A stretch of 64,000 nt of DNA from Pseudomonadota bacterium (GCA_043825735.1 JBDRRP010000107.1:248001-312000); one strand, 5' to 3'; positions 9,253 to 54,717 are shown, counted from the stretch's first letter. Made by a program: numbers and translations. The notes: generated by a model from the letters alone, not told the origin.

Positions 9253-9261
9253 AATATCCTC

Positions 9262-10812: not shown

Positions 10813-10825
10813 GACGCAGCCTTTC

Positions 10826-30079: not shown

Positions 30080-31813
30080 TCAGCCTTTGATGATTCGCGG
30101 CAGGATCATCTGATGCTGGGGGCAGATCGATTTCGGGTTCTGGTAGGCCGCCCCGGCAAACGCCGTGAGGTAGCTGCGCAGCGCCGGGTAGTTGACGATC
30201 TCGTCCACCATGCCTGTGCGGGCACAAAACAGGGGGCGCGAATTGTCGTGATAGGCCTGGGCCATTTCGTTCATCTTGTCGACGATGGGCTGCAGATCCC
30301 GGCCGGCGGCCTTTTCCTTCACCAGGCGGCGCGAATAGGTGGCCGCTGCCGCCGTTTCCCCGTGCATCACGTAGATTTCGGTGGTCGCAGTGCCCAGCGT
30401 GAAGGCATTGTGACGATTGGCCGTGGGGCCGCCCATGACATAGTGGGCCGCGGCCGATCCCTTGCGCAGCAGTACCAGCATCTGGGGGACATCGGTCTGC
30501 TGGATGGAGTAGATGAGGCTCTGGCCGAGGCCCAATAGCTCGGCCTTCTCGGCGATGTCGCCCACGTCGATGCCGGAGGTGTCCTGGAACCAGACGATGG
30601 GCAGCCGGTCGCGGCCGCAAAGGGTCACGAACTCGTTCATCTTGATCAGGCCCTGGCGGTAAAGTTTGCTGCCGATGCCGAAGTAGTCGGCGTACTCCGG
30701 GTAGTCCGCCCCTAAGAATCCCTGGCGGTTGCCGATCACCCCCACCAGAAACCCGTCCAGCTTGCACAGGCCTGTGTAGACTTCAGGGCCGTAACCGGGC
30801 CGAAACTCCATGGCTTCACTGCCGTCCACCAGGCGGGCCAAAACCTCTTCGAAATCATAGGCGCGTTTCTGATTGAACGGGACAAGATCGTACAGATCCT
30901 TCGCCGCAAATGCGGGCGACTTGGGCTCGGCCACCCGGAAGAATTTGGGGGCATAGGCCGGCATGTCCTTCATATAGTCCTTGATGCCGGCGAGCACCGC
31001 TTCTTCGGTGTCGTAGACATAGCGGAAGAACCCGGTCTGGTCGTGGTGAATGGCCACCGAACCGGGCGGCGAGGCCTTGAACTGTTTGGCGCTGGCGATC
31101 AGCGCCTCGGCACCTTCCAGATCGAAGTGCCCCTTGGGAGACATGCCGCTCAATATGCCGCCGCCGCCGACGGCGATGTTGGCATCCTTGTGGGCGAAGA
31201 GCACCGTCGGGCTGATCCCCTGGTAGCCGCCGCCGGCCGGATTGGTTCCGTAAATGGCGGCCAGAATGGGAATGCCGGCCTGTTCCAGTTCGGTGTGCCG
31301 GAAAAAGGGGGTGCCGCTGCCGCGTCGGTTGGCGTAGAACTTCTCCTGCTCGGGCAGCTTGACGCCGCTGCAGTTGACCAGCCAGACCAAGGGGATGTTG
31401 AGCCGCATGGCGAGATCCGTCACCCGCAGGATGTTTTCCGACTGGCCGGGCACCCAGGCGCCGGCCAGTGTTTTGTTGTCAAAGCCGATGATGACGGCCC
31501 ACTTGCCGGAGATCTTCCCCAGACCGTCAAAGACGTTGGTGTGCCCCTCTTCATTTCCCTCCGGGTTGTAGAGGGTGTGCAGCGGGCACCAGGTGCCCGG
31601 GTCCACCAGATAGTCCAGTCGCTGCCAGATGGTGAGCATCCCCCGGGCGTTGATTTTTTCCTGGGGAAACCCAACGGTCTTTACGGCTACAACTGCCTCG
31701 GCGATCTGTTTTTCGACGGCCCTGATCTGGGCGGCGCTTTCGGCCGCACTGTTGTGGGCGCCATTGTCGATGGGATTGCCGAAACGGGGCATTGATTCAA
31801 AATAGGGTCTCAT
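30080..31813 (-). CDS. gcdA: Glutaconyl-CoA decarboxylase alpha subunit (carboxyltransferase)
   Basis: 'LAGAWVPGQ', 'NCSGVK', 'NRRGSGTPFFR', 'YGTNPAGGGY..ISP' match recalled Acidaminococcus GcdA; adjacent to glutaryl-CoA dehydrogenase. Confidence 0.88.
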   Translation of the reverse strand: MRPYFESMPRFGNPIDNGAHNSAAESAAQIRAVEKQIAEAVVAVKTVGFPQEKINARGMLTIWQRLDYLVDPGTWCPLHTLYNPEGNEEGHTNVFDGLGKISGKWAVIIGFDNKTLAGAWVPGQSENILRVTDLAMRLNIPLVWLVNCSGVKLPEQEKFYANRRGSGTPFFRHTELEQAGIPILAAIYGTNPAGGGYQGISPTVLFAHKDANIAVGGGGILSGMSPKGHFDLEGAEALIASAKQFKASPPGSVAIHHDQTGFFRYVYDTEEAVLAGIKDYMKDMPAYAPKFFRVAEPKSPAFAAKDLYDLVPFNQKRAYDFEEVLARLVDGSEAMEFRPGYGPEVYTGLCKLDGFLVGVIGNRQGFLGADYPEYADYFGIGSKLYRQGLIKMNEFVTLCGRDRLPIVWFQDTSGIDVGDIAEKAELLGLGQSLIYSIQQTDVPQMLVLLRKGSAAAHYVMGGPTANRHNAFTLGTATTEIYVMHGETAAAATYSRRLVKEKAAGRDLQPIVDKMNEMAQAYHDNSRPLFCARTGMVDEIVNYPALRSYLTAFAGAAYQNPKSICPQHQMILPRIIKG

Positions 31814-31834
31814 GATGTACTCCTAAAAAACGAT

Positions 31835-32127
31835 AAGGGTTCAAGGATTCCAGGGGTCAAGGGTTCAAGGGTTTTAAACCCAAGGGTCGATTTGCTATTT
31901 TTATGATCACTGTGAATCATAAATTTGGACCCCGGAATCCCAATTGAACATGGCTGTTTCTGATTACGGTAAAACTGCGGCGTTTACGCCGAGCCCATCA
32001 ATTACCTCACCAAGGCCCGGGAAAAGGCCGGTAAAACGCATGTTGAAAAAACACACCGCACAGGGTAGGGCGATGCCCGCTGTTGCTTTATCCCTTGACC
32101 CCTCGACCCCTTGGCCCCTTGAACCCT
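31835..32127. repeat. Inverted 8-nt-period tandem repeat arms between acd and gcdA
   Basis: aagggttc-aaggattc-caggggtc-aagggttc-aagggtt (31835-31873) vs cccttgac-ccctcgac-cccttggc-cccttgaa-ccct (32092-32127). Confidence 0.8.
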
Positions 32128-32140
32128 CGCTTTGTTTCCT

Positions 32141-33304
32141 TCAGCGGTTGGCTTTCCGGATGCCGAGCTGGTCCAGAGCGATGATCCATTTGCAGATGTT
32201 GGAGGAGCCTTCCACCATGGTGTAGGTGGGGGCGTCCCGGTAAAAGCGCGCCACCGGGTACTCGGTGGAGTAGCCGTAGGCGCCCAGGATGCGCATGGCG
32301 TAGTTGGCGCTCTTTATTGCCGTCTCCCCGGCGAAGTACTTGGCCATGGCCACGTCGAGCCCGTTGTTGAGCTCGCCCTGGTCCTTGACCCATGCCGCCT
32401 TATAAACCAAAAGACGTGCGGCTTCGATCTCGGTGGCCATCTGGGCCACCATGTCCTGGTTCATCTGGTATTCGCCGATGGGCTTTCCAAACTGCTTTCG
32501 GGTGCTGCAGTATTTGACCACCGTGTCGAGGCAGGCCTGGGCAAGCCCGACAGCGCCGGCGGCCGCCGACAGACGGGTCTGGTTCAGGGAGCCGAAAACG
32601 ATCTTGGCGCCGTCGCCGGGGGCGCCGATGATATTCTCCTTGGGTACCCGGGTGTCGGCAAGAAAAATTTCGCCGGTGGGAGAGGAGTGGGAGCCCATTT
32701 TCTCCAGTTTCGAGGTCTTCACCCCGTTGAAGTTCTTCAGCTCCACGACAAAGGCCGACAGCCCCTTGGCGCCCTTGGATTTGTCGGTGTAGGCGTAGTA
32801 GATGACCACGTCTCCCACCGGGGCATTTGATATCCAGGTCTTTGAGCCGTTGAGCAGCCAGTGATCGCCCTTGTCTTCGGCCGTGGAGGTCATGGCCATG
32901 ACGTCGGAGCCGGCGTCGGATTCGGTAATACCAAATCCGCCCACGTACTCGGCGCGCACCAGTTTGGATACATATTTTTCAGCAAGTTCCGGGCTGCCGT
33001 AGTGGTAGATGGTATAGGCGCAGCCCAGGGTCTGCATGTTGATCTGCACCCTGAGGGAACTGGAGACCCGGGCGATCTCTTCGGTGACGATCATTGCCGC
33101 CAGCCATCCCATTTCCTCGCCATCGTATTTTTCGGGGATTACCGTTCCGAAAAACCCGAGCTTGCCCATGGGCACCATCGCTTCCTTGTAGGGGAAGTGA
33201 TGGGCGGCGTCCCATTCATCCACATTGGGGGCGAGTTTCTTGTTGGCGAACTCACGTACGGCCTTTCTCAACATTTCCAAGTCTTTAGGCAGATTGAAAT
33301 CCAA
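32141..33304 (-). CDS. acd: Glutaryl-CoA dehydrogenase, non-decarboxylating (glutaconyl-CoA forming)
   Basis: TTG start '(M)DFNLPKDL' with AGGAGGAGG RBS; 'GWLAAMIVTEEIAR.SS.LRVQ', 'YSTEYPVARFYRDAPTY.MVEGS', 'DQLG.RKANR' closely match the recalled Desulfococcus multivorans enzyme. Confidence 0.9.
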   Translation of the reverse strand: MDFNLPKDLEMLRKAVREFANKKLAPNVDEWDAAHHFPYKEAMVPMGKLGFFGTVIPEKYDGEEMGWLAAMIVTEEIARVSSSLRVQINMQTLGCAYTIYHYGSPELAEKYVSKLVRAEYVGGFGITESDAGSDVMAMTSTAEDKGDHWLLNGSKTWISNAPVGDVVIYYAYTDKSKGAKGLSAFVVELKNFNGVKTSKLEKMGSHSSPTGEIFLADTRVPKENIIGAPGDGAKIVFGSLNQTRLSAAAGAVGLAQACLDTVVKYCSTRKQFGKPIGEYQMNQDMVAQMATEIEAARLLVYKAAWVKDQGELNNGLDVAMAKYFAGETAIKSANYAMRILGAYGYSTEYPVARFYRDAPTYTMVEGSSNICKWIIALDQLGIRKANR

Positions 33305-33416
33305 GTCGCGTCCTCCTCCTGTAATGATGATGAATTCGAATGATGAATTCGAAACACCGCCGAATTCATCATGTGTTAAGTGCGCTACGAAATAATTTCT
33401 AATGCAATATTTCGCT

Positions 33417-34736
33417 TTACCCCTGTGCCGTTGCCTCCCCATAGGCGGCCAGTGTAGCGTCGACGACGCCCAGCGCGCTTTCCAGCTGCGCTCCGGCAAA
33501 GCGCAGCCGAAGGGCTGCAGACAGCATGTCGGGTGCCAGCACCCGGCGGTGAGCTGCCATCAGGGCCAGTGCGGCCAGGGCCCAGTCCGGTGCCTTGATT
33601 TTCCAAGCCTTGAAGTCGATGATCTTGACCGCGGCGGCCGTGGGCGGCAGTGTGAGGCCCGCGGCTGCCAGGACCATGGCCTCGGTGCTCAGTTTTGCAA
33701 ATAGCCCCTTGCGCCGGTCCACGCCTTCCTGGGCGAGGGCGACGACGGCGGTGGGCCGCTGAATACCGGTATAGCCGATCTCGGATGTCGACAGAATCAT
33801 TTCGCTCACCGAATGGCCGCGCATGACGGTGATGGGATAATCGCTTTTCTGGGTGGCGTTGAGACCCGCCGCGGCGCCGGCCAGGCAGAGGATCTCGCCG
33901 GCGGTGATGATGCGCTGGCCGGCGCTGCCCATCATGACCACTTCCTGGCGTCCGTTTCCGGGCGCTTGGCAGGTGGCGGCGATGGGCGCCAGCGCGACGG
34001 CCGCCGGCAGGCTTGCGGCGACGCTTCGGTAAGTCCAGCCGTATTCTTCGCGGGCGTTACCCTGTGCGTGATCGGAAGCCGGCGGCAGCGCGTCCAGGGC
34101 GGCATCGATGCTCTGGATGCTGAGCTTGTTTCGTTTGGTGTATCGCCCCGGACAGATGCCCCAGATATCCATTACCGAGAAACCGTTGAAAGCGATGGCG
34201 CTCTTAAGGGTCTCAACTAAGCGCTTGTCATAGGTTGAGGCTCTTGCCAGCCATGGGGCGCCGGCGGCGCCGGCCACCCGGCAGACGTCCAGGGGGGGTT
34301 CCAACTGGTTGAGGAAACCGGAGCCGACCCGTGCCTCCTGAGGCGTGGTGGCGCTGCACTGGCCACCGGTCATGCCATAGTTGAAATTGTTCAGAACCAG
34401 CAGGGTCAGGTCCAGATTGCGGCGACAGGCGCTCAGGATGTGGGCGCCGCCGATGCCCATGCCCCCATCGCCCATGGTGACGATGACGGTGAGTTCGGGC
34501 CGGGCCATTTTGAGCCCCGTGGCGTAGGTGAGGGCGCGGCCATGAAGGCCATGAAAGGCATGTGTGTTGAAAAAGGTGTCAAAGAGCCCCGAGCAGCCGA
34601 TGTCACTGACGATGGCCACCTGATCGCCGGCAAGTCCCATTTCCTGCAGCGCCTGATCCAGGGCGTGGACGATCTTGTCGTGAGCGCATCCCGGACAGAA
34701 AACGGGCGGGCGGCTGGGGTTGAGCAGGCTATCCAT
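33417..34736 (-). CDS. 2-oxoacid:ferredoxin oxidoreductase beta subunit fused to a gamma-like domain
   Basis: 'FCPGC', 'SDIGCS', 'LHGRAL', 'GDGG...NNFNYGMTGGQ' TPP domain, then 'GSAGQRIITAG...TQKSDY' gamma domain. Confidence 0.88.
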   Translation of the reverse strand: MDSLLNPSRPPVFCPGCAHDKIVHALDQALQEMGLAGDQVAIVSDIGCSGLFDTFFNTHAFHGLHGRALTYATGLKMARPELTVIVTMGDGGMGIGGAHILSACRRNLDLTLLVLNNFNYGMTGGQCSATTPQEARVGSGFLNQLEPPLDVCRVAGAAGAPWLARASTYDKRLVETLKSAIAFNGFSVMDIWGICPGRYTKRNKLSIQSIDAALDALPPASDHAQGNAREEYGWTYRSVAASLPAAVALAPIAATCQAPGNGRQEVVMMGSAGQRIITAGEILCLAGAAAGLNATQKSDYPITVMRGHSVSEMILSTSEIGYTGIQRPTAVVALAQEGVDRRKGLFAKLSTEAMVLAAAGLTLPPTAAAVKIIDFKAWKIKAPDWALAALALMAAHRRVLAPDMLSAALRLRFAGAQLESALGVVDATLAAYGEATAQG

Positions 34737-35853
34737 GGGCGATCACCTCCTGGATCTGGGCCGGAGAGATGAGCTCGCCGTTCATTTGCCCAAAAAAGGT
34801 GACGGGCCTGTCCGTGCACACCCGGCGGATCTCGTTGACGTACTGGCCCAGATTCATTTCCACCACTACAATGCGGCGGCAGTGTGCGGTATGCGTTCTG
34901 ATCAGTGCTTCGGGGACCGGCCAGAGGGTCTTGAGCACCAGCAGCGCCACAGAAACGCCTTCCTGCCCGGCGGCGGTAACCGCATCCCGGGCGGCGCGGG
35001 CAGTGACGCCGTAGGCGATCACCAGGGTGTTGGCGTCGGCCGGGCCATAAAACGCATGGAATGAAAACCCGTCAACCGCATCTTCCACTTTGGCCCGAAG
35101 TCGTTCCTGGGTGGCGGCGATGACCGCCGGATCGGCGGTGATGTATCCGTCGGGACCGTGGGTCGAAGACGTCTGCCGCACCAGCGGGCCGCCGGGTATC
35201 ATGGGTAGAAAATCGGGCGTGAGGCTGCCGGCCGGGGCGGCGAAGGGGACGAAAGGCCGGGTGGCCTCTGCCGCGCGGCGATGGCGCAGCGCCGGCAATG
35301 CCGCGGCGTCCAGGTCCACCGTCTCCCGGGTCATGGAGATTTCCTTGTTGGCAGCGATAAAGACCGGGCAGCGCAAATCCTCGGCCAGGTTGAAGGCTTC
35401 AACCGTCAGTTCAAGACAGTCGCGAACATCCACCGGCGCCAGCACCACCACGGGAAGTCCGCCGGAGCTGCCCCATCGGAGAAACTGCACGTCGCCGTCG
35501 GCGCCCTTGGTGGCCGACCCGGTGGAGGGCCCCAATCGCTGGACATCAACAATGACGATGGGGATTTCACTGCCCACGGCAAAGGAAATCTGCTCGCTGT
35601 AAAGGCTGATGCCCGGCCCGGAAGTGGCCGTCATCACCTTCATGCCGGCCATGGCCGCGCCCAGGCAGAAACCGATTGAGGCGATTTCGTCTTCGCCTTG
35701 GAGACAGACCCCGCCCGCCGGCGGCAGCAGCGAGAGCATGGTGTTGTAAATGGTGGTGGCCGGTGTGATCGGATACCCGGCAAAAAAGGTGCACCCCGCG
35801 GCAACAGCCGCGCGGCCGATGGCCTCGTTGCCTTCCATCAGGCTGAGTCCCAT
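34729..35853 (-). CDS. 2-oxoacid:ferredoxin oxidoreductase alpha subunit
   Basis: 'EGNEAI', 'FAGYPITPAT', 'EDEIAS', 'ATSGPG', 'QRLGPSTG', 'VEMNLGQY'. Confidence 0.92.
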   Translation of the reverse strand: MGLSLMEGNEAIGRAAVAAGCTFFAGYPITPATTIYNTMLSLLPPAGGVCLQGEDEIASIGFCLGAAMAGMKVMTATSGPGISLYSEQISFAVGSEIPIVIVDVQRLGPSTGSATKGADGDVQFLRWGSSGGLPVVVLAPVDVRDCLELTVEAFNLAEDLRCPVFIAANKEISMTRETVDLDAAALPALRHRRAAEATRPFVPFAAPAGSLTPDFLPMIPGGPLVRQTSSTHGPDGYITADPAVIAATQERLRAKVEDAVDGFSFHAFYGPADANTLVIAYGVTARAARDAVTAAGQEGVSVALLVLKTLWPVPEALIRTHTAHCRRIVVVEMNLGQYVNEIRRVCTDRPVTFFGQMNGELISPAQIQEVIAHG

Positions 35854-35867
35854 TAGGTAGTCTCCAT

Positions 35868-35881
35868 TATTTGATCAAATA
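35868..35881. promoter_or_regulatory. Palindromic operator TATTTGATCAAATA (second copy 36776-36787)
   Basis: Perfect palindrome just upstream of the OFOR alpha RBS; same core upstream of gntR. Confidence 0.7.
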
Positions 35882-36019
35882 TAAAATCAACTATATGATC
35901 CAAATGCCCCTGTCAATTGGATTCTCACCCTGAGTCCCGACGCTGCGGTCCAGAATGTCCCGGGATCACAATAGCGCGGTTCCGGCGGTCGTAAATGTCC
36001 GACGCCGGTGCCCGTTTTG

Positions 36020-36712
36020 TCAGAAGCGGGTCGCCGCCAGCATTGTTTCAACGCCCCGGACCACATGGGTCTTTACTCGGCGAATGTGCTGGGAGAGCAC
36101 TTGACTGGCGCCCTTGGCGTCGCCCTCCTGGATGCGGGAAAAGAGCGCTTTGTGGTCGGTGTCGGCTGAGTCCATGGATGTGGAGAAAAGGTAGTTGCCG
36201 CCGTATTTGAGGTAGAGCAGGTCGAAGAGGTTTTTCAGGGTTTGCTGCTGCACCCGGCAGGTCGAGAGCGCGGCGAGGGTGAGGTGAAATTCCATGTCCT
36301 TGAGCAGTCGGCCGTGCAGGTAGACGTCCTTGGCCGCCTTCAGGTGCGCGTCCAGCGCTGCGGCCAGTTGACGGATGCCGGCGGGCGTCAACTGCTTGAA
36401 AGACTTTGACAACAGGTCGAGTTCGATGAGTTCGCGAAGATCGTAGATTTCCGCCACTTCCTGGATGTCGATGGGCGCGGTGTAGTAGCCCCGGTTGGGT
36501 TCGTGGCGCACTAACTGCTGAAATTCAAGCCATTTGAGTGCCTGGATCACCGGAGTCTGGCTCATCCCCAGCCGCTCGGACAGATCCCGGTAGGAAATTT
36601 TCTGGCCGGGCACGATTTCGCTGTGAAACAGCATGTTTCGAATGCCCATGTAGGCTTTTTTGGTATGCCCCTCCGGATCGCGAAGCGGTTGTTTTTTTAT
36701 CGCAATGGGCAC
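36020..36712 (-). CDS. GntR/FCD-family transcriptional regulator
   Basis: 'LSERLGMSQTPVIQAL' wHTH; FCD 'DMEFH'. Confidence 0.9.
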   Translation of the reverse strand: MPIAIKKQPLRDPEGHTKKAYMGIRNMLFHSEIVPGQKISYRDLSERLGMSQTPVIQALKWLEFQQLVRHEPNRGYYTAPIDIQEVAEIYDLRELIELDLLSKSFKQLTPAGIRQLAAALDAHLKAAKDVYLHGRLLKDMEFHLTLAALSTCRVQQQTLKNLFDLLYLKYGGNYLFSTSMDSADTDHKALFSRIQEGDAKGASQVLSQHIRRVKTHVVRGVETMLAATRF

Positions 36713-36775
36713 CGGGCTGACTCCTGTTTGATGATTCCCCGCAATCGGCCTCCAGCGGGTTGTCGGAAATCTGAA

Positions 36776-36787
36776 ATTTGATCAAAT
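36776..36787. promoter_or_regulatory. Palindromic operator ATTTGATCAAAT upstream of gntR
   Basis: Identical core and 'ata' flank to 35868-35881. Confidence 0.7.
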
Positions 36788-36851
36788 ATATAATCGAATA
36801 ATCACATAAGTGCTGATGCTGTCAATATGATTAAAAGCGGCGCAGCCGCTT

Positions 36852-37640
36852 TTAATCATCGTGCTTGATAAATTCGTAGATCTTTTTGTCCCGGTCGGAA
36901 AGCGCGGCTTTTTCTTCATAGGTTCGGTGCAGGAAGTAGTGGTAGAAGTCGTGCTGCAGACTGTCGCGGTTGGTGGTTACGAAACTGCGGTTGCGGGTCC
37001 AGATGATGGGGGACTGCTCCGGCGCGGCGGTTTCAAAAACCCCGACCAGGGCTTCACTTTTATCGGCGATGATGTCGATGGACTCACCGCCGATGCGTTC
37101 CCTGAGGCCATCGGCATCGGGGTGAACGACCTGTATGTCGGTGACGCGGGGGATGGCCCCCATGGCGATGAAGCGCACGCCAACGCCCCGGTGCATGGCC
37201 TGATCGAGGGCCTTTGAAAGCTGCTCCCAGGTGTTGGGGAAGATCCGGATATAAAGCTCATGGCGCGCGGCGGTGATGATGTCCCGGGCTTTGGTCATCA
37301 CCGCAGCGTATCCTTTCAAGGTCAACAGGTATTCGGTGCTGGTTTCAGCCGCCAGGGTGCTGAGTTGTTCTTCCAGGATGGCCAGGTTGGACTCGAACTG
37401 GCTGCGCAGGCGTTTTTTGAGCTCGGTGAAGGGCAGGGGAACGTACAGGCCTTTGTCCACCTCGAAAACGAGGCCCTTTTTCCCAAGGCTGCGAAGCACG
37501 TCGTAGATGCGGGAGCGCGCGATGCCCGACAGTTTGCTGATCTGGGAGCCGTTGGCCGGGTGCTGATTGAGCAGCGCCAGATAGCAGGCCGATTCGTATT
37601 GGGAAAAGGCAAAATCGCGCAGCAGGGCGGCAATGTCCAT
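36852..37640 (-). CDS. TrmB-family transcriptional regulator
   Basis: 'FSQYESACYLALL', 'ISKLSGIARSRIYDVLRSL' HTH plus effector-binding domain. Confidence 0.88.
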   Translation of the reverse strand: MDIAALLRDFAFSQYESACYLALLNQHPANGSQISKLSGIARSRIYDVLRSLGKKGLVFEVDKGLYVPLPFTELKKRLRSQFESNLAILEEQLSTLAAETSTEYLLTLKGYAAVMTKARDIITAARHELYIRIFPNTWEQLSKALDQAMHRGVGVRFIAMGAIPRVTDIQVVHPDADGLRERIGGESIDIIADKSEALVGVFETAAPEQSPIIWTRNRSFVTTNRDSLQHDFYHYFLHRTYEEKAALSDRDKKIYEFIKHDD

Positions 37641-37654
37641 GGTAGGTGTCCTCA

Positions 37655-37674
37655 GTTGCTATATTTAAAGCAAC
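37655..37674. promoter_or_regulatory. Operator GTTGCT-N8-AGCAAC upstream of trmB
   Basis: gttgct-atatttaa-agcaac; same motif at 37986-38005. Confidence 0.7.
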
Positions 37675-37761
37675 ATTTTAGTCGGTGGTGGGTATCGGCA
37701 CAGTCCAGTGAGGGCGCGAGGGGTGTCACCGTCTGGTCCATGGTCGGGCATCACGGTTATT

Positions 37762-37787
37762 GTAGGGGCAGGCCCCCGTGCCTGCCT
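37762..37787 (+). repeat. GTAG-type REP palindrome
   Basis: gtaggggcaggcccccgtgcctgcct; copy of 18341-18366. Confidence 0.75.
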
Positions 37788-37955
37788 GGGTACTTTGTAA
37801 TCATGCCTGGCATGGCAACCACAAAGAGATCCCCCGACCTTTCGATTTCCGGATGGGCTGCATAGTCATGCATGGCACACCATGCCCCCTGATTTCAAGT
37901 ACCAATGACGGCGAGCGGTTTCTGGGGGCAAATTGCGGCGGCGCCGAGCGCCTTC

Positions 37956-38005
37956 TTGACAATCGAAGCGGCAGAGGCATATATTGTTGCTACCTTGTAA
38001 GCAAC
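37956..38005 (+). promoter_or_regulatory. Sigma70 promoter plus GTTGCT-N8-AGCAAC operator for the class III aminotransferase
   Basis: TTGACA (37956)...TATATT (37980) followed at once by gttgct-accttgta-agcaac. Confidence 0.7.
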
Positions 38006-38026
38006 TATATAGGCTGAGAGGTCCTC

Positions 38027-39328
38027 ATGAGCATCACAAGTTTGAAACGATTCGATTCCCCGGTGTACGGATTTTCCAATATATCCGATGAGAATGTCCT
38101 TGCTCTTGAGGCGCGTTTCGGCGCCCACCATTACCGGCGGCTGCCCGTGGTGGTCCGCCAGGCCCGGGGGAGCTGGATCACCGATGTGAGTGGGAAAAAA
38201 TATCTGGACTGCCTTGCGGCCTATTCCGCGGCCAACCCCGGCCATCATCATCCGACAATCGTCAGCGCCATGGTTCGTGCCCTTTTAGGCGACTACGCGT
38301 CGGTGATTTCCAACGTGGTCTACACCGATCCCCTGGCCCTGTTTCTATCCCGACTGGCCGAGTTCGTGCCGCAGATGGCACCCCGGTTCGGGGCAGTGGG
38401 CAACAAGGTGCTGCCTAAAAACGGCGGGGTGGAGTCGGTGGAAACCGCCATCAAGATGGCCCGCTACTACGGTTGGAAGCAAAAGGGGATACCCGATGGC
38501 AAACAGGAAATCATTGTTTTCGACAGCAATTTCCACGGCCGCATGATCACCGTTGTCTCCTTTTCCTCGGTGGATAAATACAAGCAAGGCTTCGGTCCCC
38601 TGACGCCGGGATTTGTTTCGGTGCCCTTTGGCAGCATGGATGCGGTCGAAAAGGCCGTGACGAAAAACACCTGCGGCATCCTTGTCGAGCCCATGCAGGG
38701 CGAGGGGGGCATGCGGGTGCCGCCGACCGGATTTCTCAAGGGCCTGCGGGATATCGCCGACGCCCACGATCTGCTGCTGCTCTTTGATGAAATCCAGGTG
38801 GGGCTGGGGCGCACGGGAAAACGGTTCTGCTTTGAGCACGAAAAGGTCGTCCCTGACGGCCTCATCCTGGGAAAGGCCTTGTCGGGCGGTCTCGTTCCCC
38901 TGTCGGCCTTTGTCACCAGTGCCGAGCTCATGGATCTGGCCTTCAAGATCGGCTCGGACGGCTCGACCTTCGGGGGCTATCCCCTGGCCTGTGTGGCCGG
39001 CTGCGCCGCACTGGACGTGATGGAAACCGAGCGTCTGGCCGAATCCTCGGCCTCACAGGGCGCCAAGCTCAAAAAGCGCATCGAAGCCATCGCCGCCCGC
39101 TCCGGGCAGGTGCAGGAAGTCCGGGGCCGGGGTCTTTTCATCGGCATCGAGGTGGTCCATGCCAATGCCATGGTCTTTTGCCGCGAGCTGCTCGATCGGG
39201 GCCTTATCGTCAACGACAGCCACGGCCACACCATCCGCATCTCGCCGCCGCTGAACATCTCCGACGCGGATCTGGATTTTCTCACCGACAATCTGGAAGC
39301 GGTATTGGTCAAGCCGCGCGCGGTTTAA
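38027..39328 (+). CDS. Class III (omega) aminotransferase, ornithine aminotransferase/RocD-like
   Basis: 'YLDCLAAYSAANPGHHHP', 'NFHGR', 'EPMQGEGG', 'DEIQVGLGRTG', 'LGKALSGG', 'GSTFGG'. Confidence 0.9.
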   Translation: MSITSLKRFDSPVYGFSNISDENVLALEARFGAHHYRRLPVVVRQARGSWITDVSGKKYLDCLAAYSAANPGHHHPTIVSAMVRALLGDYASVISNVVYTDPLALFLSRLAEFVPQMAPRFGAVGNKVLPKNGGVESVETAIKMARYYGWKQKGIPDGKQEIIVFDSNFHGRMITVVSFSSVDKYKQGFGPLTPGFVSVPFGSMDAVEKAVTKNTCGILVEPMQGEGGMRVPPTGFLKGLRDIADAHDLLLLFDEIQVGLGRTGKRFCFEHEKVVPDGLILGKALSGGLVPLSAFVTSAELMDLAFKIGSDGSTFGGYPLACVAGCAALDVMETERLAESSASQGAKLKKRIEAIAARSGQVQEVRGRGLFIGIEVVHANAMVFCRELLDRGLIVNDSHGHTIRISPPLNISDADLDFLTDNLEAVLVKPRAV

Positions 39329-39517
39329 GGCGCCAAGCGGCGAAGATGGATTTTGAAGCGTCATGAAAACGGGGGAGGACGGCCCTGACAAGTCGCTTCC
39401 CCCGAATTTTTGATCGCAACCATTTTCGATCCAAACTTGACAGGAACGCGGGTGCGCAGATAACTGGAGCTCATCCACATAAGACCGCATCCCTCGATTT
39501 GAAGGATTCTCCAAACA

Positions 39518-40002
39518 ATGCCCGACGATAAGGCAAGCCGCACGGCGCTGGGTTCCGCCTTCCTTCGCGCCGCGCATCGTGGATGCGGCCGATCGCCACC
39601 ATCGACTTCGAGCGCGAATCGCTGCGCGATGGCTTAAGAAGGCATCGTGTCTCGACGGCCGCGCCGACCTTTTTTTCCTGGCTGGGCGCAACAATGTATC
39701 TGAAGGAAGACGCCATCGATGCGGCTCTCCGGTCTGTTGCCGCGTTTCCTAAAGAAAGCGAGATCGTGCTGACTTTCGCGTTGACGGGCGATGCGCCGTC
39801 AGTGGCCCGGCGCGCAGCAAGTTATGGAGAACCCTGGGTGAGCTGCTTCGCGCCTGATGCGATCGAGGCGAAACTGCGCAGCGCCGGCTTTGCCGACGTG
39901 GTGCCCCTTGCACCCGAAGAGGCAGAGGCGGGGTACTTCAGGGGCCGGTCAGGAGACCTTCCGGTACCGAAGCGGACCAACATCCTGTATGCAGTGGTTT
40001 AG
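39518..40002 (+). pseudogene. Internally deleted, frameshifted SAM-dependent methyltransferase (LCM/TIGR00027-like)
   Basis: ATG 39518 gives the typical N-terminus 'MPDDKASRTALGSAFLRAAH'. It jumps in another frame to 'IDFERESL...TFFSWLGATMYL...GEPW', and the SAM-binding middle is missing. Confidence 0.7.
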
Positions 40003-40093
40003 CTTTAGCTTTGCGATCTCTGCGGCTTTGCGAGAGATTCGGCCTTTTTACGGGGCCATCAAAGTTGAATGGGCGACCGGTCTGCCACTCTCC

Positions 40094-41635
40094 TCAGATG
40101 TCGAATTTGATCCCCTGCGCCAGCGGCAGCGTGGTGCCGTAGTTGATGGTGTTGGTCTGGCGCCGCATGTAGGCTTTCCAGGCATCCGAACCGGATTCGC
40201 GGCCGCCGCCGGTCTCCTTTTCCCCGCCGAACGCCCCGCCGATCTCGGCGCCGGAAGTGCCGATGTTGACGTTGGCCAGGCCGCAGTCCGATCCGGCAGG
40301 TCCCAGGAAGATCTCCGCCTGCCGAAGGTCCGTTGTGAAGATGGACGAAGAGAGCCCCTGAGGGACATCGTTTTGTAGGGCGATGGCGTTTTCCACCCCG
40401 CCGCTGTATCGGATCAAGTACAAAACTGGCGCGAAAGTTTCTTGCTGGACGATGGGATAGGTGTTTTCAACGACGACCAGCGCGGGGGTGACGTAGCAGC
40501 CAGATTCATAGCCCGGGCCTTCGAGTACCCGGCCCCCGCAAAGCACCTCACCGCCGCACTGGCGAATCGTGTCAAGGGCTGCCGTGAACTGTGCCACGGC
40601 CTGACGGTCGATGAGCGGCCCCATGTGATTGGATGCATCCAGCGGAGAGCCGATCCGCAGACTGGTGTAAGCCTTTGTCAGTGCCAGTTTTACCAGCTCG
40701 AAAATCGATTCGTGGATAATGAGCCGGCGGGTGCTGGTGCAGCGCTGACCGGCGGTGCCGACCGCGCCGAAAACCGCCGCCGGCACGGCCAGTTTAAGGT
40801 CGGTGTGTTCGGTGAGAATGATCGCATTGTTACCGCCCAGTTCCAGTATGGTCCGGCCCAGTCGACCGGCCACGGTCGCTGCGATCCGTCTGCCGATGCG
40901 GGTCGAGCCGGTAAAGGAAATCAGGGGCAGACGCGGGTCGGACAGCATCCGGTCGCCGATGGTGCTGCCGCTGCCGATGATCAGGTTGAAGATGCCTTCG
41001 GGCAGTGCGTTTTCGGCGATGACTTCACCGACGATGCGCTGGATCGCGATGGCTGTTATAGGCACCTTCGAGGACGGTTTCCACACGATGACATCGCCGC
41101 AGACGGCGCCGATCAGCGCATTCCAGGACCAAACGGCCACTGGAAAGTTGAACGCGGTGATGACACCGATCGGGCCCAGGGGATGGTACTGGTCATACAT
41201 GCGGTGGCTGGGGCGTTCCGAGGGCATGGTAAAACCGTAGAGCTGACGGGAGAGACCGACGGCGAAATCGGCGATGTCGATCATCTCCTGAACCTCGCCC
41301 ATGCCTTCCTGGATGGATTTTCCCATTTCGGTGCTCACCAGACGACCCAATGGTTCCTTGTATCGGCGAAGCCGCAGGCCGATCTGGCGCACGATTTCTC
41401 CGCGCTTGGGCGCCGGCGTGCAGCGCCAGGCGTGAAAGGCATCGATGGCCCTTTGCATCAGCTGTTCATAGTCGTCTTCCGAGGCTTTTCGCACGGCGGC
41501 GATTTTCCCACCATCCACGGGAGAGGTGCTTGTCAACAGCGCGCTGTCCGCCGCGGTGTGCCACTGCACCCCAGTGGAGGCGCCGTCATTGACGGCGGCA
41601 ACGCCGAGGGTGTCAAGCATCGTTGACATTTCCAT
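40094..41635 (-). CDS. ALDH7/antiquitin-family aldehyde dehydrogenase (alpha-aminoadipate semialdehyde / P6C dehydrogenase-like)
   Basis: 'TPAPKRGEIVRQ', 'GEVQEMIDI', 'TAFNFPVAVW', 'ELGGNNA', 'GTAGQRCT', 'GAEIGGAFGGEK.TGGGRESGSDAWKAYMRR', 'LPLAQGIKF'. Confidence 0.92.
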   Translation of the reverse strand: MEMSTMLDTLGVAAVNDGASTGVQWHTAADSALLTSTSPVDGGKIAAVRKASEDDYEQLMQRAIDAFHAWRCTPAPKRGEIVRQIGLRLRRYKEPLGRLVSTEMGKSIQEGMGEVQEMIDIADFAVGLSRQLYGFTMPSERPSHRMYDQYHPLGPIGVITAFNFPVAVWSWNALIGAVCGDVIVWKPSSKVPITAIAIQRIVGEVIAENALPEGIFNLIIGSGSTIGDRMLSDPRLPLISFTGSTRIGRRIAATVAGRLGRTILELGGNNAIILTEHTDLKLAVPAAVFGAVGTAGQRCTSTRRLIIHESIFELVKLALTKAYTSLRIGSPLDASNHMGPLIDRQAVAQFTAALDTIRQCGGEVLCGGRVLEGPGYESGCYVTPALVVVENTYPIVQQETFAPVLYLIRYSGGVENAIALQNDVPQGLSSSIFTTDLRQAEIFLGPAGSDCGLANVNIGTSGAEIGGAFGGEKETGGGRESGSDAWKAYMRRQTNTINYGTTLPLAQGIKFDI

Positions 41636-41740: not shown

Positions 41741-41872
41741 GATAAAACCGTAAAAAGTGATTTCGAACCACAGAGACCGCAGAGAACCGCAGAGAATTTA
41801 CTGAATAATTAGTAAGTTATCTCTGCGCTCTCTGTGTCCTCTGTGGTGATTTCAGACTTTTACGGCACCATC
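41741..41872. mobile_element. MITE-like palindromic element (copy 2)
   Basis: TIRs gataaaaccgtaaaaagt / acttttacggcaccatc; reverse-complement homologue of 3669-3801. Confidence 0.72.
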
Positions 41873-42497
41873 AACGATGCGAACAGGAACGGATTCCGGC
41901 CAGGGAAAATCGGAGGATGTGATCGGCCAGGGCCTGGATCAGTTCCGGCGATACGGTCTGCTCCATCAGATACTCCAGGTCGCTGGTGCGCAGCATGAGC
42001 AGCGCCCGGCACTGGTTGACGATGCTGAGTTCACAAAACCGCACCGCTTCATCGCTGACATCAGGGCCGGCGATCTCCCTGACCATGGCCAGCAGATATT
42101 GGCGCCGTGGTTCGATGGCCCGGCGCCAGCTTTCATCGATCAACCCGGTCGGGTTGGCCAACTCCATAAGATACATTTTCATAAACACGCCTTTGGCGCC
42201 AGGCGAGCAGAACTTGTGGACCAGGGCGTGGATTTTCCGGCGAAGGCGATCTTCCGGGGCACTGTCGGGCGATTCGGGCAAGTCGGGGACGATGTCCTTT
42301 TCGAATGCCTGCTGCCAGGCCTCGGTGTAGAGCGCATCCTTGCTGCCGAAGTAGTAACTGACGGCGGCCACATTGGTGTCGGCCCGTCGGCAGATCTGTG
42401 CCACTGTGGCGTCGCGAAACCCTTTTTCGCCGAAAACGTCGCAGGCTGCGGCCAATAGCCGGGTGCGGGTTATTTTGCCGTCTTTTCTTTGAGCCAT
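41871..42497 (-). CDS. TetR-family regulator (CecR/CerR-like)
   Basis: 'FGEKGFRDATVAQIC...NVAAVSYYFGSKDALY'; C-terminal 'ADHILRFSLAGI'; divergent from the efflux operon. Confidence 0.88.
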   Translation of the reverse strand: MAQRKDGKITRTRLLAAACDVFGEKGFRDATVAQICRRADTNVAAVSYYFGSKDALYTEAWQQAFEKDIVPDLPESPDSAPEDRLRRKIHALVHKFCSPGAKGVFMKMYLMELANPTGLIDESWRRAIEPRRQYLLAMVREIAGPDVSDEAVRFCELSIVNQCRALLMLRTSDLEYLMEQTVSPELIQALADHILRFSLAGIRSCSHR

Positions 42498-42616
42498 TGT
42501 GCGGGTTTTCTGCCTTTGTTAAGTTTTTTTCGCCGTCGCCACTACGGCGGCGAATAACCCGGCAGGGGCTGTGCCAGGAGAGGGAATCTGCCTGGGTTGA
42601 AAGGGCGCGAATTAAG

Positions 42617-42632
42617 TTAAATGAGAATTTAA
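42617..42632. promoter_or_regulatory. Candidate TetR operator
   Basis: ttaaat-gaga-atttaa palindrome in the AT-rich tetR/RND spacer. Confidence 0.45.
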
Positions 42633-42799
42633 AATAAATATTTGAAATAGTCAATAGGGCATGATATGCGCTGTCTTCAATGCCTTTTATGGCATCGCGT
42701 GAACTCAGCGACGGTTAACGGTTAGTCAAAAACGGCGTGTCTCTGTCCTTCGCAAAGGATCGGTGGCGCTTTTCAATCGTCTGTAAGGAGCGGTTCTCT

Positions 42800-43945
42800 A
42801 TGCGATTTCGATTGTCTCAACCTTGTTTGGCATCTGCTTTTGCGCTCTTTTTTGTCATGGTCGGAACCAATTCCGGAGCGGCTGCCCCGCCGGGCCCCGG
42901 CGGCGCCCGGCGCCCGGTGGTCACCGTTCAGGTGGTCACCGACGAGGAGGTCAACCCGCCCACCGAATACGTAGGGCGGGTGGAAGCCATCCAGGCGGTG
43001 GACTTGCGTGCGCGCGTGCAGGGGTTTCTCGATGCGGTGGCCTTCAAGGAAGGCGCCAGCGTGAGCGCAGGTGACACCCTCTACCGCATCGAGCAGACCG
43101 TTTATAAGGCCAAGGTCAATGAGGCCGGTGCCAAAGTGACCGCTTCCCGCGCTGCCCTCAACAAAAGTCAGCAATACCTCAAACGCCTCCAGTCCGTGTA
43201 TGCCGGCGGTGTGTCGGAGGCGGATCTGGAAAGCGCCGTGAGCACGGAGCAGCAGGCAAAGGCCCAACTCCAGGAGAATCTGGCCAGCCTGGAACTGGCC
43301 GAACTGAACCTGGGCTATACCACCATCACCGCCCCCATCGGTGGCCGCATCGGGCGCTCGGCCTATACTCGGGGCAACCTGGTCGGCCCGGAGTCCGGGG
43401 TTCTGGCCCGGATCGTTCAGACCGACCCGATCAGGGTCGTTTATTCCATGAGCGAAAACGAACTGGTGGCCACACGGGTGGCTGAAAGGGAAATTGGCGC
43501 CGACAGCGTCGACTGCCGCCTCGTGCCGCGGATACAACTGGCCGGCGACGGCATGTATCCGCTGGCCGGTCGTCTGGACTTCGTTGACAATGAAATCGAT
43601 GCGGCCACCGGCACTATCGCCGTCAGAGCGGTATTCGACAACCCCGACGGCATTCTGCTGCCCGGCCAGTACGTGTCCGTGTTCGTTACCTGCCGGGAAG
43701 GAAAGCGACTGCCGATGGTTCCCCAGTCCGCGGTTCTGGCAGACCGGGAGGGGCGCTATGTGTTCGTCGTGGATGCCGGGGGCAAGGTCCAGCAACGGCG
43801 CATCACCACCGGGCCGGTCCTGGATACCCGGTGGGCGGTGTCTTCCGGTTTGATACCCGGAGAGACCATCATCGTGCAGGGGATTCAGAAAGTTAAGCCC
43901 GGCCAGGAAGTCGACGTCGTCCACGCCGCCGACGGCAAGAAATAA
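42800..43945 (+). CDS. RND efflux periplasmic adaptor (MFP)
   Basis: 'VDLRARVQGFL', 'ITAPIGGRIG', 'TGTIAVRAVFDNP..LLPGQYV'; AAGGAG RBS. Confidence 0.9.
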   Translation: MRFRLSQPCLASAFALFFVMVGTNSGAAAPPGPGGARRPVVTVQVVTDEEVNPPTEYVGRVEAIQAVDLRARVQGFLDAVAFKEGASVSAGDTLYRIEQTVYKAKVNEAGAKVTASRAALNKSQQYLKRLQSVYAGGVSEADLESAVSTEQQAKAQLQENLASLELAELNLGYTTITAPIGGRIGRSAYTRGNLVGPESGVLARIVQTDPIRVVYSMSENELVATRVAEREIGADSVDCRLVPRIQLAGDGMYPLAGRLDFVDNEIDAATGTIAVRAVFDNPDGILLPGQYVSVFVTCREGKRLPMVPQSAVLADREGRYVFVVDAGGKVQQRRITTGPVLDTRWAVSSGLIPGETIIVQGIQKVKPGQEVDVVHAADGKK

Positions 43946-43954
43946 GGAAACGGC

Positions 43955-46900: not shown

Positions 46901-47107
46901 CCCCTGGTGATCGCAGAAGGTGCCGGCGCCAACAGCCGGCGTTCCATGGGCACTACGGTGTTCTTTGGCATGCTGGCAGCAACGGTGGCCGGCATCTTCC
47001 TCATCCCGGCGCTCTATTACGTGTTGCAGAACGGGCGGGAGGCCATGTTGGCCCGCCGGCAGCGGCGGCGGGAGAACATCGAACATCGAACGTCCAACAT
47101 CGAATGA
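43955..47107 (+). CDS. RND efflux permease (HAE1, AcrB/BepE-like)
   Basis: 'FIERPRLA', 'AQYPQITPP', 'IGLVVDDAIVVVEN', 'SKNAILIVEF', 'RAVLMTA'. Confidence 0.95.
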   Translation: MFSRIFIERPRLAMVISIIITLAGVLALLNIPIAQYPQITPPEIRVTATYPGASAEVVAATVAAPLEAEVNGVENMLYMSSTCSNNGSYALSVTFAVGTDPAIAQVNVQNRVQQAVPKLPKEVTDQGISVRTRSTDFLGVISFFVPGGGKDALFLSNYVSINVKDALTRLNGVSEAYIFGAQDYSMRIWMNPERLTALQLTADDVIGAIRAQNIQAAAGGIGSAPSGDDQQIQYTLRAKGRLKEAGDFEEIIIRANAQGGIVRLRDVARVELGAQSYASRSMLNGAPAVNMAIYSNASANALDTIEAVNREVARLSKGFPKDIEYRFVYDTTKFVRVAIHEIVLTLLVTFFLVVGVTYIFLQDWRATLIPSLTIPVSLVGSFAVLLAMGFSANTVTLFALILAIGLVVDDAIVVVENVQRIMMEEQLDAPAAAIKAMGQVIGPIIATTLVLIAVFLPVGFIPGITGQLYRQFAVTIITAVILSAINALTLSPALCAVLLRPHVTVQHGPLAWFSRVLAASRRIYVGIAGWLVRRFVVALCIYVMVFTAGYYLFSTRPVSFLPSEDQGVFFVNAQLPEASALVRTNIVMRQISEVLTKTPGVADVIAVSGFSIISGSAENVGLCVVVLDTWDKRKTPELQIEGILGRVRRELAALPSANIFAFSPPAIRGLGLTGGFDFRLQAVGDQSPQELSAVTRAMVIAANQDPTLRAAFSTYTADAPQLYLNLDRTKAEILKVPVDRVFSTLQANLGSRYVNDFNLFSRVFQVKVQADAPYRDSVDDIKRIYVRSDDGNMVPMSSLASLSTVLAPQLVTRYNQFASAQINGEAARGFSTGEAMDAMAQVAAKTLPDGYAYEWSAISYQEQQSGGQAPVLLLLALVFGYLFLVAQYESWTIPLSVMISISVAVLGALAGLWATGLDLSIYAQIGLVLLVGLASKNAILIVEFSRDQRAAGVPLFEAAVAGARIRYRAVLMTAFSFILGVLPLVIAEGAGANSRRSMGTTVFFGMLAATVAGIFLIPALYYVLQNGREAMLARRQRRRENIEHRTSNIE

Positions 47108-47398
47108 TGAATGAAAAGGCGAACGACGAAGGGCGAACATCGAACATCGAATGGTGAATGAAAGGGCGGAGGGCGAACGTCGAATGAAAGGGTAACGAAT
47201 GCTGTCGATGCGGTTTGCATTCGATGTTAATATCTCTCGCCTTTCTTGGCGCGAGAACCGGTTTTTTGGTTTTCTATTCGATGTTCAGCGTTCGACGTTC
47301 GATGTTCGAAGTTCATTTTTAATTTTGCTTTTCTTTGCGCCGTTGCGTCTTTGCGCGAGAACCGGTTTTTTGGTTTTTTATTTGACGTTCATCGATTG
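47075..47398. repeat. Inverted 7-nt-period (ATCGAAC) tandem-repeat array
   Basis: aacatcg/aacgtcc/aatgatg... units at 47075-47190, complementary ttcgatg units at 47277-47316; ~40-nt internal duplication 47249/47355. Confidence 0.8.
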
Positions 47399-47535
47399 AA
47401 TGCTCATAAAAACCAGCGATGTATCCTAAGTGGTGAAGGTTGCCGGTGACGATTACGAGCACGCGCACGAGCACGAAAAAAGCAACGGCTTGAGCTTTCC
47501 GGATAACCGCGTACTTTTAAATGGGAAGTACTTTC

Positions 47536-53888: not shown

Positions 53889-54326
53889 TTACATGCTTGC
53901 CCGCAGCAGGGGTAGACCTTCTCCCATCGCCGATTGCGTCAATCGCTCATCGAAACAGGCGAAAATGAGATCATTGGGCAATCGTTCATGAATAAGGAGG
54001 GCGGACGCCAAGTGGATGGCATCAAACCCCCTTAGCGGGTGTTTTTCAAGCACGGATCGGATCAGATCGTTCAGACCGTCATTGACCTCCACCCGAATGA
54101 ACCCCGTCCAGTCGTTTTTAAAATCTACCATCGCTTTGTCAAACAGCGCCAAGGCCTCGGGTCCGGACGCTCTTTTTTTCCGATAAATGGCCGCTAAAGC
54201 TTCGGCGTATGCCACGGCAGACGTCGCCACTTCATCGGCCTGATTCCATGCAGCGACGAGCATCTCGGAAAAGGATTCTTTAAAATACTTTTTGACCAGG
54301 GCGCTGGTGTCCAGATACAAAATCAT
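53889..54326 (-). CDS. vapC: VapC PIN-domain toxin
   Basis: 'YLDTSALVK', 'AYAE', 'LRGFDAIHLASA', 'ACFDERL'. Confidence 0.9.
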   Translation of the reverse strand: MILYLDTSALVKKYFKESFSEMLVAAWNQADEVATSAVAYAEALAAIYRKKRASGPEALALFDKAMVDFKNDWTGFIRVEVNDGLNDLIRSVLEKHPLRGFDAIHLASALLIHERLPNDLIFACFDERLTQSAMGEGLPLLRASM

Positions 54327-54607: not shown

Positions 54608-54717
54608 GGCGGTCAACTCCAGAGTAGCTACTTGTGGCAAAATCGTATCCACTTTTTCTGCAGAAATCAACCCGTAATATATGCTGCGGACGGCGCTTGG
54701 GGGCATGCAAGCGGTTC

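Follow-up and report, generated by a model that had tools for sequence, protein, structure and literature searches.

A stretch of 64,000 nucleotides (JBDRRP010000107.1:248001-312000 of GCA_043825735.1; hereafter the window), located on contig C107 of a 6.8-Mb genome with a completeness of 100% (G000, the source genome), encodes a 2-oxoacid:ferredoxin oxidoreductase (OFOR) next to the glutaryl-CoA enzymes Acd and GcdA, a class III aminotransferase and an aldehyde dehydrogenase of the ALDH7 family. From sequence comparisons we propose, with a probability of about 0.62, that this OFOR is a 2-oxoadipate:ferredoxin oxidoreductase. The enzyme would convert 2-oxoadipate, CoA and two oxidised ferredoxins to glutaryl-CoA, CO2 and two reduced ferredoxins. 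In anaerobes it would take over the role of the lipoyl 2-oxoadipate dehydrogenase complex. The oxidative decarboxylation of 2-oxoadipate to glutaryl-CoA in one step dependent on thiamine pyrophosphate (TPP) is established chemistry, and 2-oxoadipate is proposed as the substrate because it is the compound through which a single such step would link ALDH7 with glutaryl-CoA.

Most likely, lysine would here be converted to aminoadipate semialdehyde by the aminotransferase under TrmB control, the semialdehyde to 2-aminoadipate by ALDH7, and 2-aminoadipate to 2-oxoadipate by a transaminase encoded elsewhere. Acd would then form glutaconyl-CoA from glutaryl-CoA, and GcdA, together with sodium-pump subunits encoded elsewhere, would form crotonyl-CoA. 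This lower module, predicted to be under GntR control, would also serve the breakdown of benzoate and glutarate. For the whole lysine route with the window aminotransferase as its first step, the odds are somewhat below even. The OFOR clade is widespread and probably completes an anaerobic aminoadipate route. A previous sequence-only reading had arrived at the idea of a 2-oxoadipate OFOR; comparative linkage now supports it, whereas two of the enzymes suggested with it, a lysine 6-aminotransferase (LAT) and a class I transaminase, gained no support.

Linkage of the OFOR to glutaryl-CoA and lysine genes

The main comparison covered 201 genomes of the same order, the source genome counted in; many are fragmented, and related genomes are not independent. 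The second set consisted of the best 80 of 584 OFOR loci from a species collection, the records of which may overlap with the 201 genomes; 47 of these loci have at least 3 kb on each flank. Compared loci and genomes are denoted by L and G numbers, respectively.

GcdA is encoded in 107 of the 201 genomes, and 82 of them also have the OFOR; the two genes are at most 10 kb apart in 27 of these 82 genomes (16 families). As a control we used the standard KorB, which is present in 164 genomes with positions listed for 148. It was within 20 kb of gcdA in 0/94 genomes and of the ALDH7 gene in 0/51; thus, the link between the OFOR and gcdA exceeds chance. ALDH7 was found in 58 genomes, 43 of which share the OFOR (5 within 10 kb), and the clade of the window aminotransferase in 20, of which 18 have the OFOR (3 within 10 kb). 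The sequence-only reading had set conserved synteny beforehand as a refuting test, and the linkage with gcdA holds.

In the 80 loci, the neighbours that belong to the lower route were Acd (13), GcdA (12) and a glutaryl-CoA dehydrogenase of the GcdH type (2). Those of the upper route were ALDH7 (11), DAO-family oxidases (9), AOR (6) and the cyclodeaminase family (4), and there were also the window aminotransferase clade (3), class I transaminases (2) and AmaA-like oxidases (2). Pathway genes were near the OFOR in 22 of the 47 well-flanked loci, with upper and lower genes together in 6. The glutaryl-CoA dehydrogenases beside the OFOR clade are of three types, namely Acd (72-89% identity), an Acd-like group (46%) and the GcdH type, the best Protein Data Bank (PDB) matches of which are 2eba, 3sf6 and human 1siq.

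Locus L039 has the order ALDH7-oforA-oforBG-class I transaminase-acd-gcdA on one strand and carries the entire proposed lower route on that strand. In L061 a glutamate-dehydrogenase-like gene sits between the genes of ALDH7 and the OFOR, and in L102, L104 and L105 the order is class III transaminase-ALDH7-OFOR; the best PDB match of this transaminase is 7vno, which we take to be PH1423. ALDH7 is paired with a pipecolate-oxidase-like (AmaA-like) gene in L051, L055 and L125 (NF050086 463-490, cut-off 600). Furthermore, of the 15 genomes that carry the closest AOR group, 14 have the OFOR, which suggests that AOR can stand in for ALDH7. The upper neighbours vary as well, yet a C6 semialdehyde or amino acid is the predicted substrate or product of each. 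It is the lower neighbours and the ALDH7 family alone that favour the C6 over the C5 series.

A larger cluster that appears to serve pipecolate use was observed in L038, L041, L042, L045, L052, L064 and L085. It combines GntR, a racemase-family gene (PRK07475) and an amino-acid ABC transporter with a catabolic part consisting of a DAO-family oxidase, ALDH7 or AOR, OFOR, Etf, the cyclodeaminase family, an Acd-like protein, GcdA and a GabT-type transaminase. In two further loci (L179:8511-13999 and L183:1-4503), 2-hydroxyacyl-CoA dehydratase or benzoyl-CoA-reductase-like genes and an activator gene adjoin gntR-OFOR-acd-gcdA, with oah close by in L183.

The OFOR and its clade

The alpha subunit keeps both the YPITP motif and the Arg that binds the substrate carboxylate (residues as defined in PMC5020499). 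The beta part has the TPP motif and four cluster Cys residues (14, 17, 48 and 195), and the gamma domain is fused behind it. In the predicted model of beta-gamma (pLDDT 93) the beta part resembles 8ys5_C and 6n2n_B and the gamma part 3on3; the model confirms the OFOR beta and gamma folds and nothing beyond the fold. The NCBIfam Kor equivalog cut-offs are missed (alpha, 382 < 411 and 286 < 579; beta, 174 < 364).

Leu51 of the beta part occupies the position of Lys/Arg in enzymes that use 2-oxoglutarate (position 49 of StOFOR beta), and Leu was found there in all 77 listed of 78 motif matches of the clade. Arg residues specific to the clade occur after Cys195 and in the gamma loop. According to an excerpt of PMC5020499, the substitution K49I in StOFOR1 abolished the activity on 2-oxoglutarate. 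The source genome has 4 other OFORs of the Kor/Vor type, 3 of which keep Lys/Arg.

The clade forms one tight group and was found in 101 of the 201 genomes, about half of those sampled from this major order of sulfate reducers. Relatives with names are mostly Desulfobacterales and other Desulfobacterota, with Desulforhopalus sp. IMCC35007 and Desulfosediminicola flagellatus as cultured carriers. At E<=1e-80, at least 3188 related proteins were present among 8000 scored, and the databases label them as 2-oxoglutarate OFOR or TPP enzyme. A tree of 108 beta domains sets the clade apart (SH-aLRT 95); being a quick tree only, it is not used for inference on origin.

A literature search, mostly outside subscription journals, gave no 2-oxoadipate OFOR among the matches listed, and older enzymology may have tried 2-oxoadipate on other OFORs. 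The excerpted part of the Desulfococcus multivorans proteome paper does not mention such an enzyme.

The lower module

Acd scores 756.8 bits with NF045552 (cut-off 470), and 3mpi is its sole PDB match at E<=1e-90 (E 1e-201); its gene starts with TTG behind a ribosome site. The best PDB matches of GcdA are 3gf3 and 1pix, both GcdA (E 1e-229), and the genome contains a single close copy of gcdA. By such family scores the identities of acd, gcdA and the ALDH7 gene are clear. Genes of the Gcd membrane and biotin-carrier subunits were absent from the window; three TIGR01109 genes are located elsewhere in the genome, and in L049, L129, L184 and L185 these subunits are encoded inside the module. Since the source genome also encodes Oah and a glutaconate-CoA-transferase-like protein, acd-gcdA has feeds other than the OFOR.

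The upper route

ALDH7 exceeds the cut-off of NF050084 (779 vs 730) and is encoded by a single copy in the genome. For the aminotransferase, the sequence-only reading had pointed to LATs. However, TIGR03251, the LAT family, does not rank within the top 25 of 69 families for this protein, and a true LAT that adjoins ALDH7 elsewhere scores 708; we therefore reject a LAT identity and regard the protein as an ornithine-aminotransferase-like paralogue. With TIGR01885 (ornithine aminotransferase) it scores 368, below the cut-off of 378, compared with 391 for the L033 orthologue and 536 for the genome's own RocD. It is 44% identical to this clear RocD, encoded on contig C21, and four conserved stretches of the active region set its clade apart from RocD; by human ornithine aminotransferase, these stretches presumably line the substrate site. 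A true LAT gene directly follows the ALDH7 gene in L154:50-3015 of G072.

The genome also encodes a PutA-like protein; thus, with RocD, separate genes are available for the ornithine/proline route. From the neighbours and these separate genes there is about an even chance that the window aminotransferase is a lysine epsilon-aminotransferase, and it is possible that it acts as the 2-aminoadipate transaminase. In G062 its orthologue lies 34 bases before the ALDH7 gene on one strand. The orthologue is directly 5' of oforA in L033, L067, L112 and L293 and 5' of AOR in L113 and L114; L049 has both the OFOR module and the aminotransferase unit in a different arrangement. Many orthologues are accompanied solely by trmB, and ALDH7 is missing from 13 of the 20 genomes with the aminotransferase.

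For the 2-aminoadipate transaminase, the class I enzyme encoded at 16712-18010 of the window had been named as one candidate. It shares only 31% identity with the class I transaminase encoded within OFOR operons and has no orthologue or closer match in the 80 loci, so this candidate lacks support. A better lead appears to be a TAXI-TRAP-aminotransferase cluster on contig C9, three proteins of which are 77, 79 and 68% identical to those encoded directly 5' of oforA in L099. The keto-acid cleavage gene beside this cluster may point to a beta-amino acid as the substrate. The C9 region (L138, G000:C9:5000-14000) encodes a keto-acid cleavage enzyme, IclR, TAXI-TRAP, class III and D-amino-acid transaminases and an MFS protein, and orthologues of the cluster were observed in L099, L115, L116 and L129, close to the OFOR or the window aminotransferase.

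No pipecolate oxidase was found in the source genome. The anabolic LysW route was rejected, because the genome has no LysX over the cut-off and has a LysA-like gene. As for the Kam route, the best KamA-like protein in the genome scores 492 (cut-off 525), and PF09043 (KamD) gave no match, its control being silent too. The window itself has a KamA-like radical SAM gene at 56799-57953 (370 bits, under the lysine 2,3-aminomutase cut-off) with no Kam partners adjoining.

Gene organization and regulation

All the genes of the sequence-only reading were recovered at their positions (Table 1), with the OFOR genes upstream of acd and gcdA on the same strand. The aminotransferase and ALDH7 genes are indeed near the OFOR; they had been placed right next to it, but gntR and the trmB-like gene lie between and the aminotransferase gene is divergent. 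The locus consists of three transcription units: gntR-oforA-oforBG-acd-gcdA, the trmB-like gene with the divergent aminotransferase gene, and the ALDH7 gene. These units and the two distinct operator motifs rule out a single operon for all the genes. The reading frames of oforA and oforBG overlap by 8 bp. The ALDH7 and aminotransferase genes face each other, separated by a broken methyltransferase remnant that G062 lacks at this place.

Table 1. Genes and candidate regulatory sites of the OFOR locus in the window
Feature	Position	Strand	Remarks
gcdA, glutaconyl-CoA decarboxylase carboxyltransferase subunit	30080..31813	minus	PF01039; 3gf3/1pix
acd, non-decarboxylating glutaryl-CoA dehydrogenase (387 aa)	32141..33304	minus	NF045552; 3mpi
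oforBG, OFOR fused beta-gamma	33417..34736	minus	TPP_enzyme_C and POR domains
oforA, OFOR alpha	34729..35853	minus	YPITP motif and substrate-binding Arg retained
Candidate GntR operator	35870..35883		palindrome core TTTGATCAAA; 17 bases 5' of oforA
gntR, GntR/FCD regulator	36020..36712	minus	recurring gntR-oforAB-acd-gcdA module
Candidate GntR box, copy 2	36777..36790		just downstream of sigma-70-like gntR promoter 36825-36798
TrmB-like regulator gene	36852..37640	minus	travels with class III aminotransferase
Candidate TrmB operator GTTGCT-N8-AGCAAC, copy 1	37655..37674		before trmB-like gene
Candidate TrmB operator, copy 2	37986..38005		before aminotransferase; abuts -10 box of 11/12 sigma-70-like promoter 37956-37985
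Class III aminotransferase, ornithine-aminotransferase-like, separate clade	38027..39328	plus	TIGR01885; neighbours
Broken SAM methyltransferase remnant, TIGR00027-like	39518..40002	plus	interrupted frames; outside pathway
ALDH7, piperideine-6-carboxylate (aminoadipate semialdehyde) dehydrogenase	40094..41635	minus	NF050084

The 14-mer GntR box precedes both oforA and gntR, and these are two of the three matches in the genome at <=1 mismatch. It is found 5' of oforA in 8/16 loci with gntR vs 5/81 without gntR; a scan of the 201 genomes for further regulon genes was too noisy for use. The TrmB-type palindrome has only two exact sites in the 6.8-Mb genome, those before the trmB-like and aminotransferase genes, and a box with <=2 mismatches was found 5' of the aminotransferase orthologue in 10 of 17 loci. 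The two palindromes probably mark two regulons, as predicted binding sites of the GntR and TrmB-like regulators, and the route may be induced by lysine. A weak GntR-box match was also observed 5' of a sodium-pump decarboxylase beta (GcdB-type) gene (L306:1338-2637, G000:C99), which possibly encodes a Gcd membrane subunit for the gntR-OFOR-acd-gcdA module.

Alternative explanations

Several findings weigh against 2-oxoadipate as the substrate or lysine as its source. Sister enzymes (33-41% identity) share the Asp and mostly the Leu, without Lys/Arg, and their genes adjoin those of aconitase and isocitrate dehydrogenase (L234), citrate synthase (L236) or a succinate-glutarate CoA-transferase-like protein (L220). 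Because the same change occurs in sister enzymes of tricarboxylic acid (TCA) clusters, the pocket change does not exclude 2-oxoglutarate, and Leu51 as proof against this substrate is weakened. Among the well-flanked loci, 25 of 47 are without any pathway gene. ALDH7 is missing from 58 of the 101 OFOR genomes, and ALDH7 and the linked AOR group are both missing from 40 (presence counts of ALDH7 and AOR depend on the queries used). These genomes would then obtain 2-oxoadipate by uptake or through different aldehyde oxidisers, unless the enzyme has a further role. G072 has LAT, ALDH7 and GcdA with no OFOR match, no 2-aminoadipate transaminase was identified in the source genome, and each upstream neighbour fits the one-carbon-shorter ornithine/proline (C5) series as well. 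Furthermore, the OFOR tracks Oah, a marker of the benzoyl-CoA pathway (62/75 Oah-positive vs 39/126 Oah-negative genomes), and in the Oah-positive genomes it is independent of ALDH7 (23/28 with ALDH7, 39/47 without). The OFOR is as closely associated with the benzoyl-CoA pathway as with ALDH7, a point that the sequence-only reading missed; in the Oah-negative genomes it follows ALDH7 (20/30 with ALDH7 vs 19/96 without).

One alternative, which we consider unlikely, is that the OFOR is a second 2-oxoglutarate:ferredoxin oxidoreductase (KGOR). Ornithine or proline would then be degraded via glutamate semialdehyde, glutamate and 2-oxoglutarate to succinyl-CoA, the CoA donor for glutarate activation, with formation of reduced ferredoxin. 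In Thauera, KGOR supplies reduced ferredoxin for benzoyl-CoA reductase, and the association with Oah, as well as the reductase/dehydratase-like genes and oah that flank the module in L183, would suit such a role. The closest solved structures are 2-oxoglutarate OFORs, the aminotransferase scores best as an ornithine aminotransferase (the L033 orthologue passes TIGR01885), glutamate dehydrogenase genes are near the OFOR in L039, L097 and L188, and the sister enzymes in TCA clusters and beside the CoA-transferase-like gene point in the same direction. However, most of the genomes (164/201) already have the standard KorB, and the source genome already has RocD and the PutA-like protein. The recurring aldehyde dehydrogenase is of the piperideine-6-carboxylate family rather than a pyrroline-5-carboxylate dehydrogenase, and the downstream genes encode glutaryl-CoA enzymes of three types, whereas a search of the 80 loci with the partial SucD of the source genome gave no sucD-like match.

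The same reaction may also serve another purpose, with lysine as one use among several: the enzyme would clear 2-oxoadipate that is taken up or arises as a side product of a homocitrate/Re-citrate-synthase-type route, or would work in reverse as a glutaryl-CoA carboxylase in benzoate degraders. Many OFOR copies stand alone amid housekeeping genes, and neither ALDH7 nor the aminotransferase is encoded in 31 of the Oah-positive genomes with the OFOR. In L277, L278, L280 and L283, the OFOR gene of a sister clade is transcribed divergently from genes for a homocitrate-synthase-like protein (TIGR02146 396, cut-off 414) and a GcdH-type enzyme; GcdH is also encoded in L284. We regard this explanation as quite improbable, since the absence of LysX over the cut-off and the LysA-like gene leave no aminoadipate route to lysine to feed here. 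Moreover, the OFOR follows ALDH7 in the Oah-negative genomes, AOR can replace ALDH7, and the link with Oah may stem from kinship and co-transfer with acd-gcdA.

Two other substrates have less in their favour. For 6-amino-2-oxohexanoate, the open form of piperideine-2-carboxylate, the product would be 5-aminovaleryl-CoA, to be deaminated and oxidised to glutaryl-CoA. The loss of the basic pocket residue and the Asp at position 45 would suit this substrate, as would genes of the cyclodeaminase/piperideine-2-carboxylate reductase family and of GabT-type transaminases (TIGR00700 532 > 507) in L045, L052 and L085. It is nevertheless very improbable: ALDH7 immediately upstream of the OFOR, in a run that also includes a class I transaminase or an amino-acid dehydrogenase (L039 and L061), suits the conversion of 2-aminoadipate to 2-oxoadipate, and GabT-like genes are not decisive given that, in the excerpt of bioRxiv 450254, the 2-aminoadipate transaminase of Pseudomonas putida accepts 5-aminovalerate weakly. 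Scarcely credible is an aromatic 2-oxoacid oxidoreductase that forms benzoyl-CoA from phenylglyoxylate; the lysine genes would then be bystanders. The hydrophobic pocket stretch GLFDTFF and the association with Oah agree with it, and the excerpted text of PMC5109826 assigns no enzyme to the phenylglyoxylate step in D. multivorans. However, the PadG model gives the OFOR just 55 bits, phenylacetate genes do not recur in the loci, and ALDH7 and the pipecolate-oxidase-like neighbours would be left unexplained.

The preferred reading, a 2-oxoadipate:ferredoxin oxidoreductase acting presumably in the oxidative direction, could be widened. As a long shot, the clade may be a dedicated, reversible 2-oxoadipate/glutaryl-CoA OFOR. 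It would serve the oxidation of lysine and pipecolate in genomes with the upper genes, whereas benzoate degraders that lack these genes would use it as a ferredoxin-driven glutaryl-CoA carboxylase. Such a CO2-fixing C5-to-C6 step could join a homocitrate-type cycle, a link suggested because the sister clade adjoins a homocitrate-synthase-like gene and GcdH. Named sources of the sister group are Phycisphaerales, Anaerolineae and Ca. Thermokryptus, and members other than those in TCA clusters adjoin ALDH7 (L229) or the homocitrate-synthase-like gene with GcdH; the L277-type cluster could be a homocitrate route to glutaryl-CoA. Reductase/dehydratase-like subunits were observed beside a sister OFOR as well (L277:3469-5792).

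Other genes in the window

A separate sugar-acid cluster at 4790-13493 comprises GntR, a tripartite tricarboxylate transporter, a sugar-isomerase-like TIM barrel protein, a split transketolase and a 2-hydroxyacid dehydrogenase. The window also contains multiheme cytochrome c and cytochrome b561-type genes (4-2301), a Fic-domain gene (18658-19875), a CecR-type TetR gene with RND and MacAB-type efflux genes that have no relation to the pathway (41871-52233) and a PIN/Phd toxin-antitoxin pair (53889-54706).

Implications and comparison with known systems

If the proposal is true, 2-oxoadipate would be a new substrate class for the OFOR family, and lysine and pipecolate would have an oxygen-independent aminoadipate route that conserves energy twice, as reduced ferredoxin and by sodium-pumping decarboxylation. 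Metabolic models of sediment sulfate reducers may misassign this OFOR, given its presence in 101 of 201 genomes and the current database labels.

The 2-oxoglutarate OFORs of Helicobacter pylori (OorDABC, 8ys5), M. marinus (OGOR, 6n2n) and Sulfolobus tokodaii (StOFOR, 5b46-48) share with the window enzyme the fold, YPITP, the alpha Arg, the TPP site and the four Cys. Its own features are the fusion of beta followed by gamma, Leu in place of Lys/Arg behind the third Cys, Asp in place of Gly ahead of this Cys, a TPP motif shorter by one residue, an altered gamma loop, and identities of about 30-40%, with scores below all Kor cut-offs. In the mammalian lysine route 2-oxoadipate is converted to glutaryl-CoA by 2-oxoadipate dehydrogenase (excerpt of PMC12655727). 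The proposed net reaction is like that of this lipoyl complex with DHTKD1, whereas the OFOR belongs to an unrelated family, would use ferredoxin in place of lipoamide/NAD, and is followed by the non-decarboxylating Acd and GcdA. The benzoate Acd/Gcd module of D. multivorans (3mpi) has acd and gcdA of which those of the window are clear members, and Oah is also present in the source genome; unlike that module, the present one is headed by gntR and the OFOR, and the Gcd membrane subunits are encoded outside the window.

The class III fold of the window aminotransferase is shared by RocD and the archaeal Orn/Lys omega-aminotransferases TK2101 and PH1423. According to an excerpt of PMC9986279, L-Orn and L-Lys are substrates of both archaeal enzymes, and TK2101 can use 2-oxoadipate; thus, enzymes of the ornithine aminotransferase type can take lysine. 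Compared with RocD, the window aminotransferase forms a separate clade with the conserved changes and the 44% identity described above. The D-lysine/pipecolate route of P. putida (AmaA, AmaB, PP_4108 and PP_5260) is similar in its upper part, where ALDH7 of the AmaB type and oxidases like AmaA lead to 2-aminoadipate and 2-oxoadipate. In P. putida, however, PP_5260 turns 2-oxoadipate into D-2-hydroxyglutarate, and the authors of that work state in the excerpted text that bacteria had not been seen to use the glutaryl-CoA route (bioRxiv 450254); the OFOR clade would provide such a route in anaerobes.

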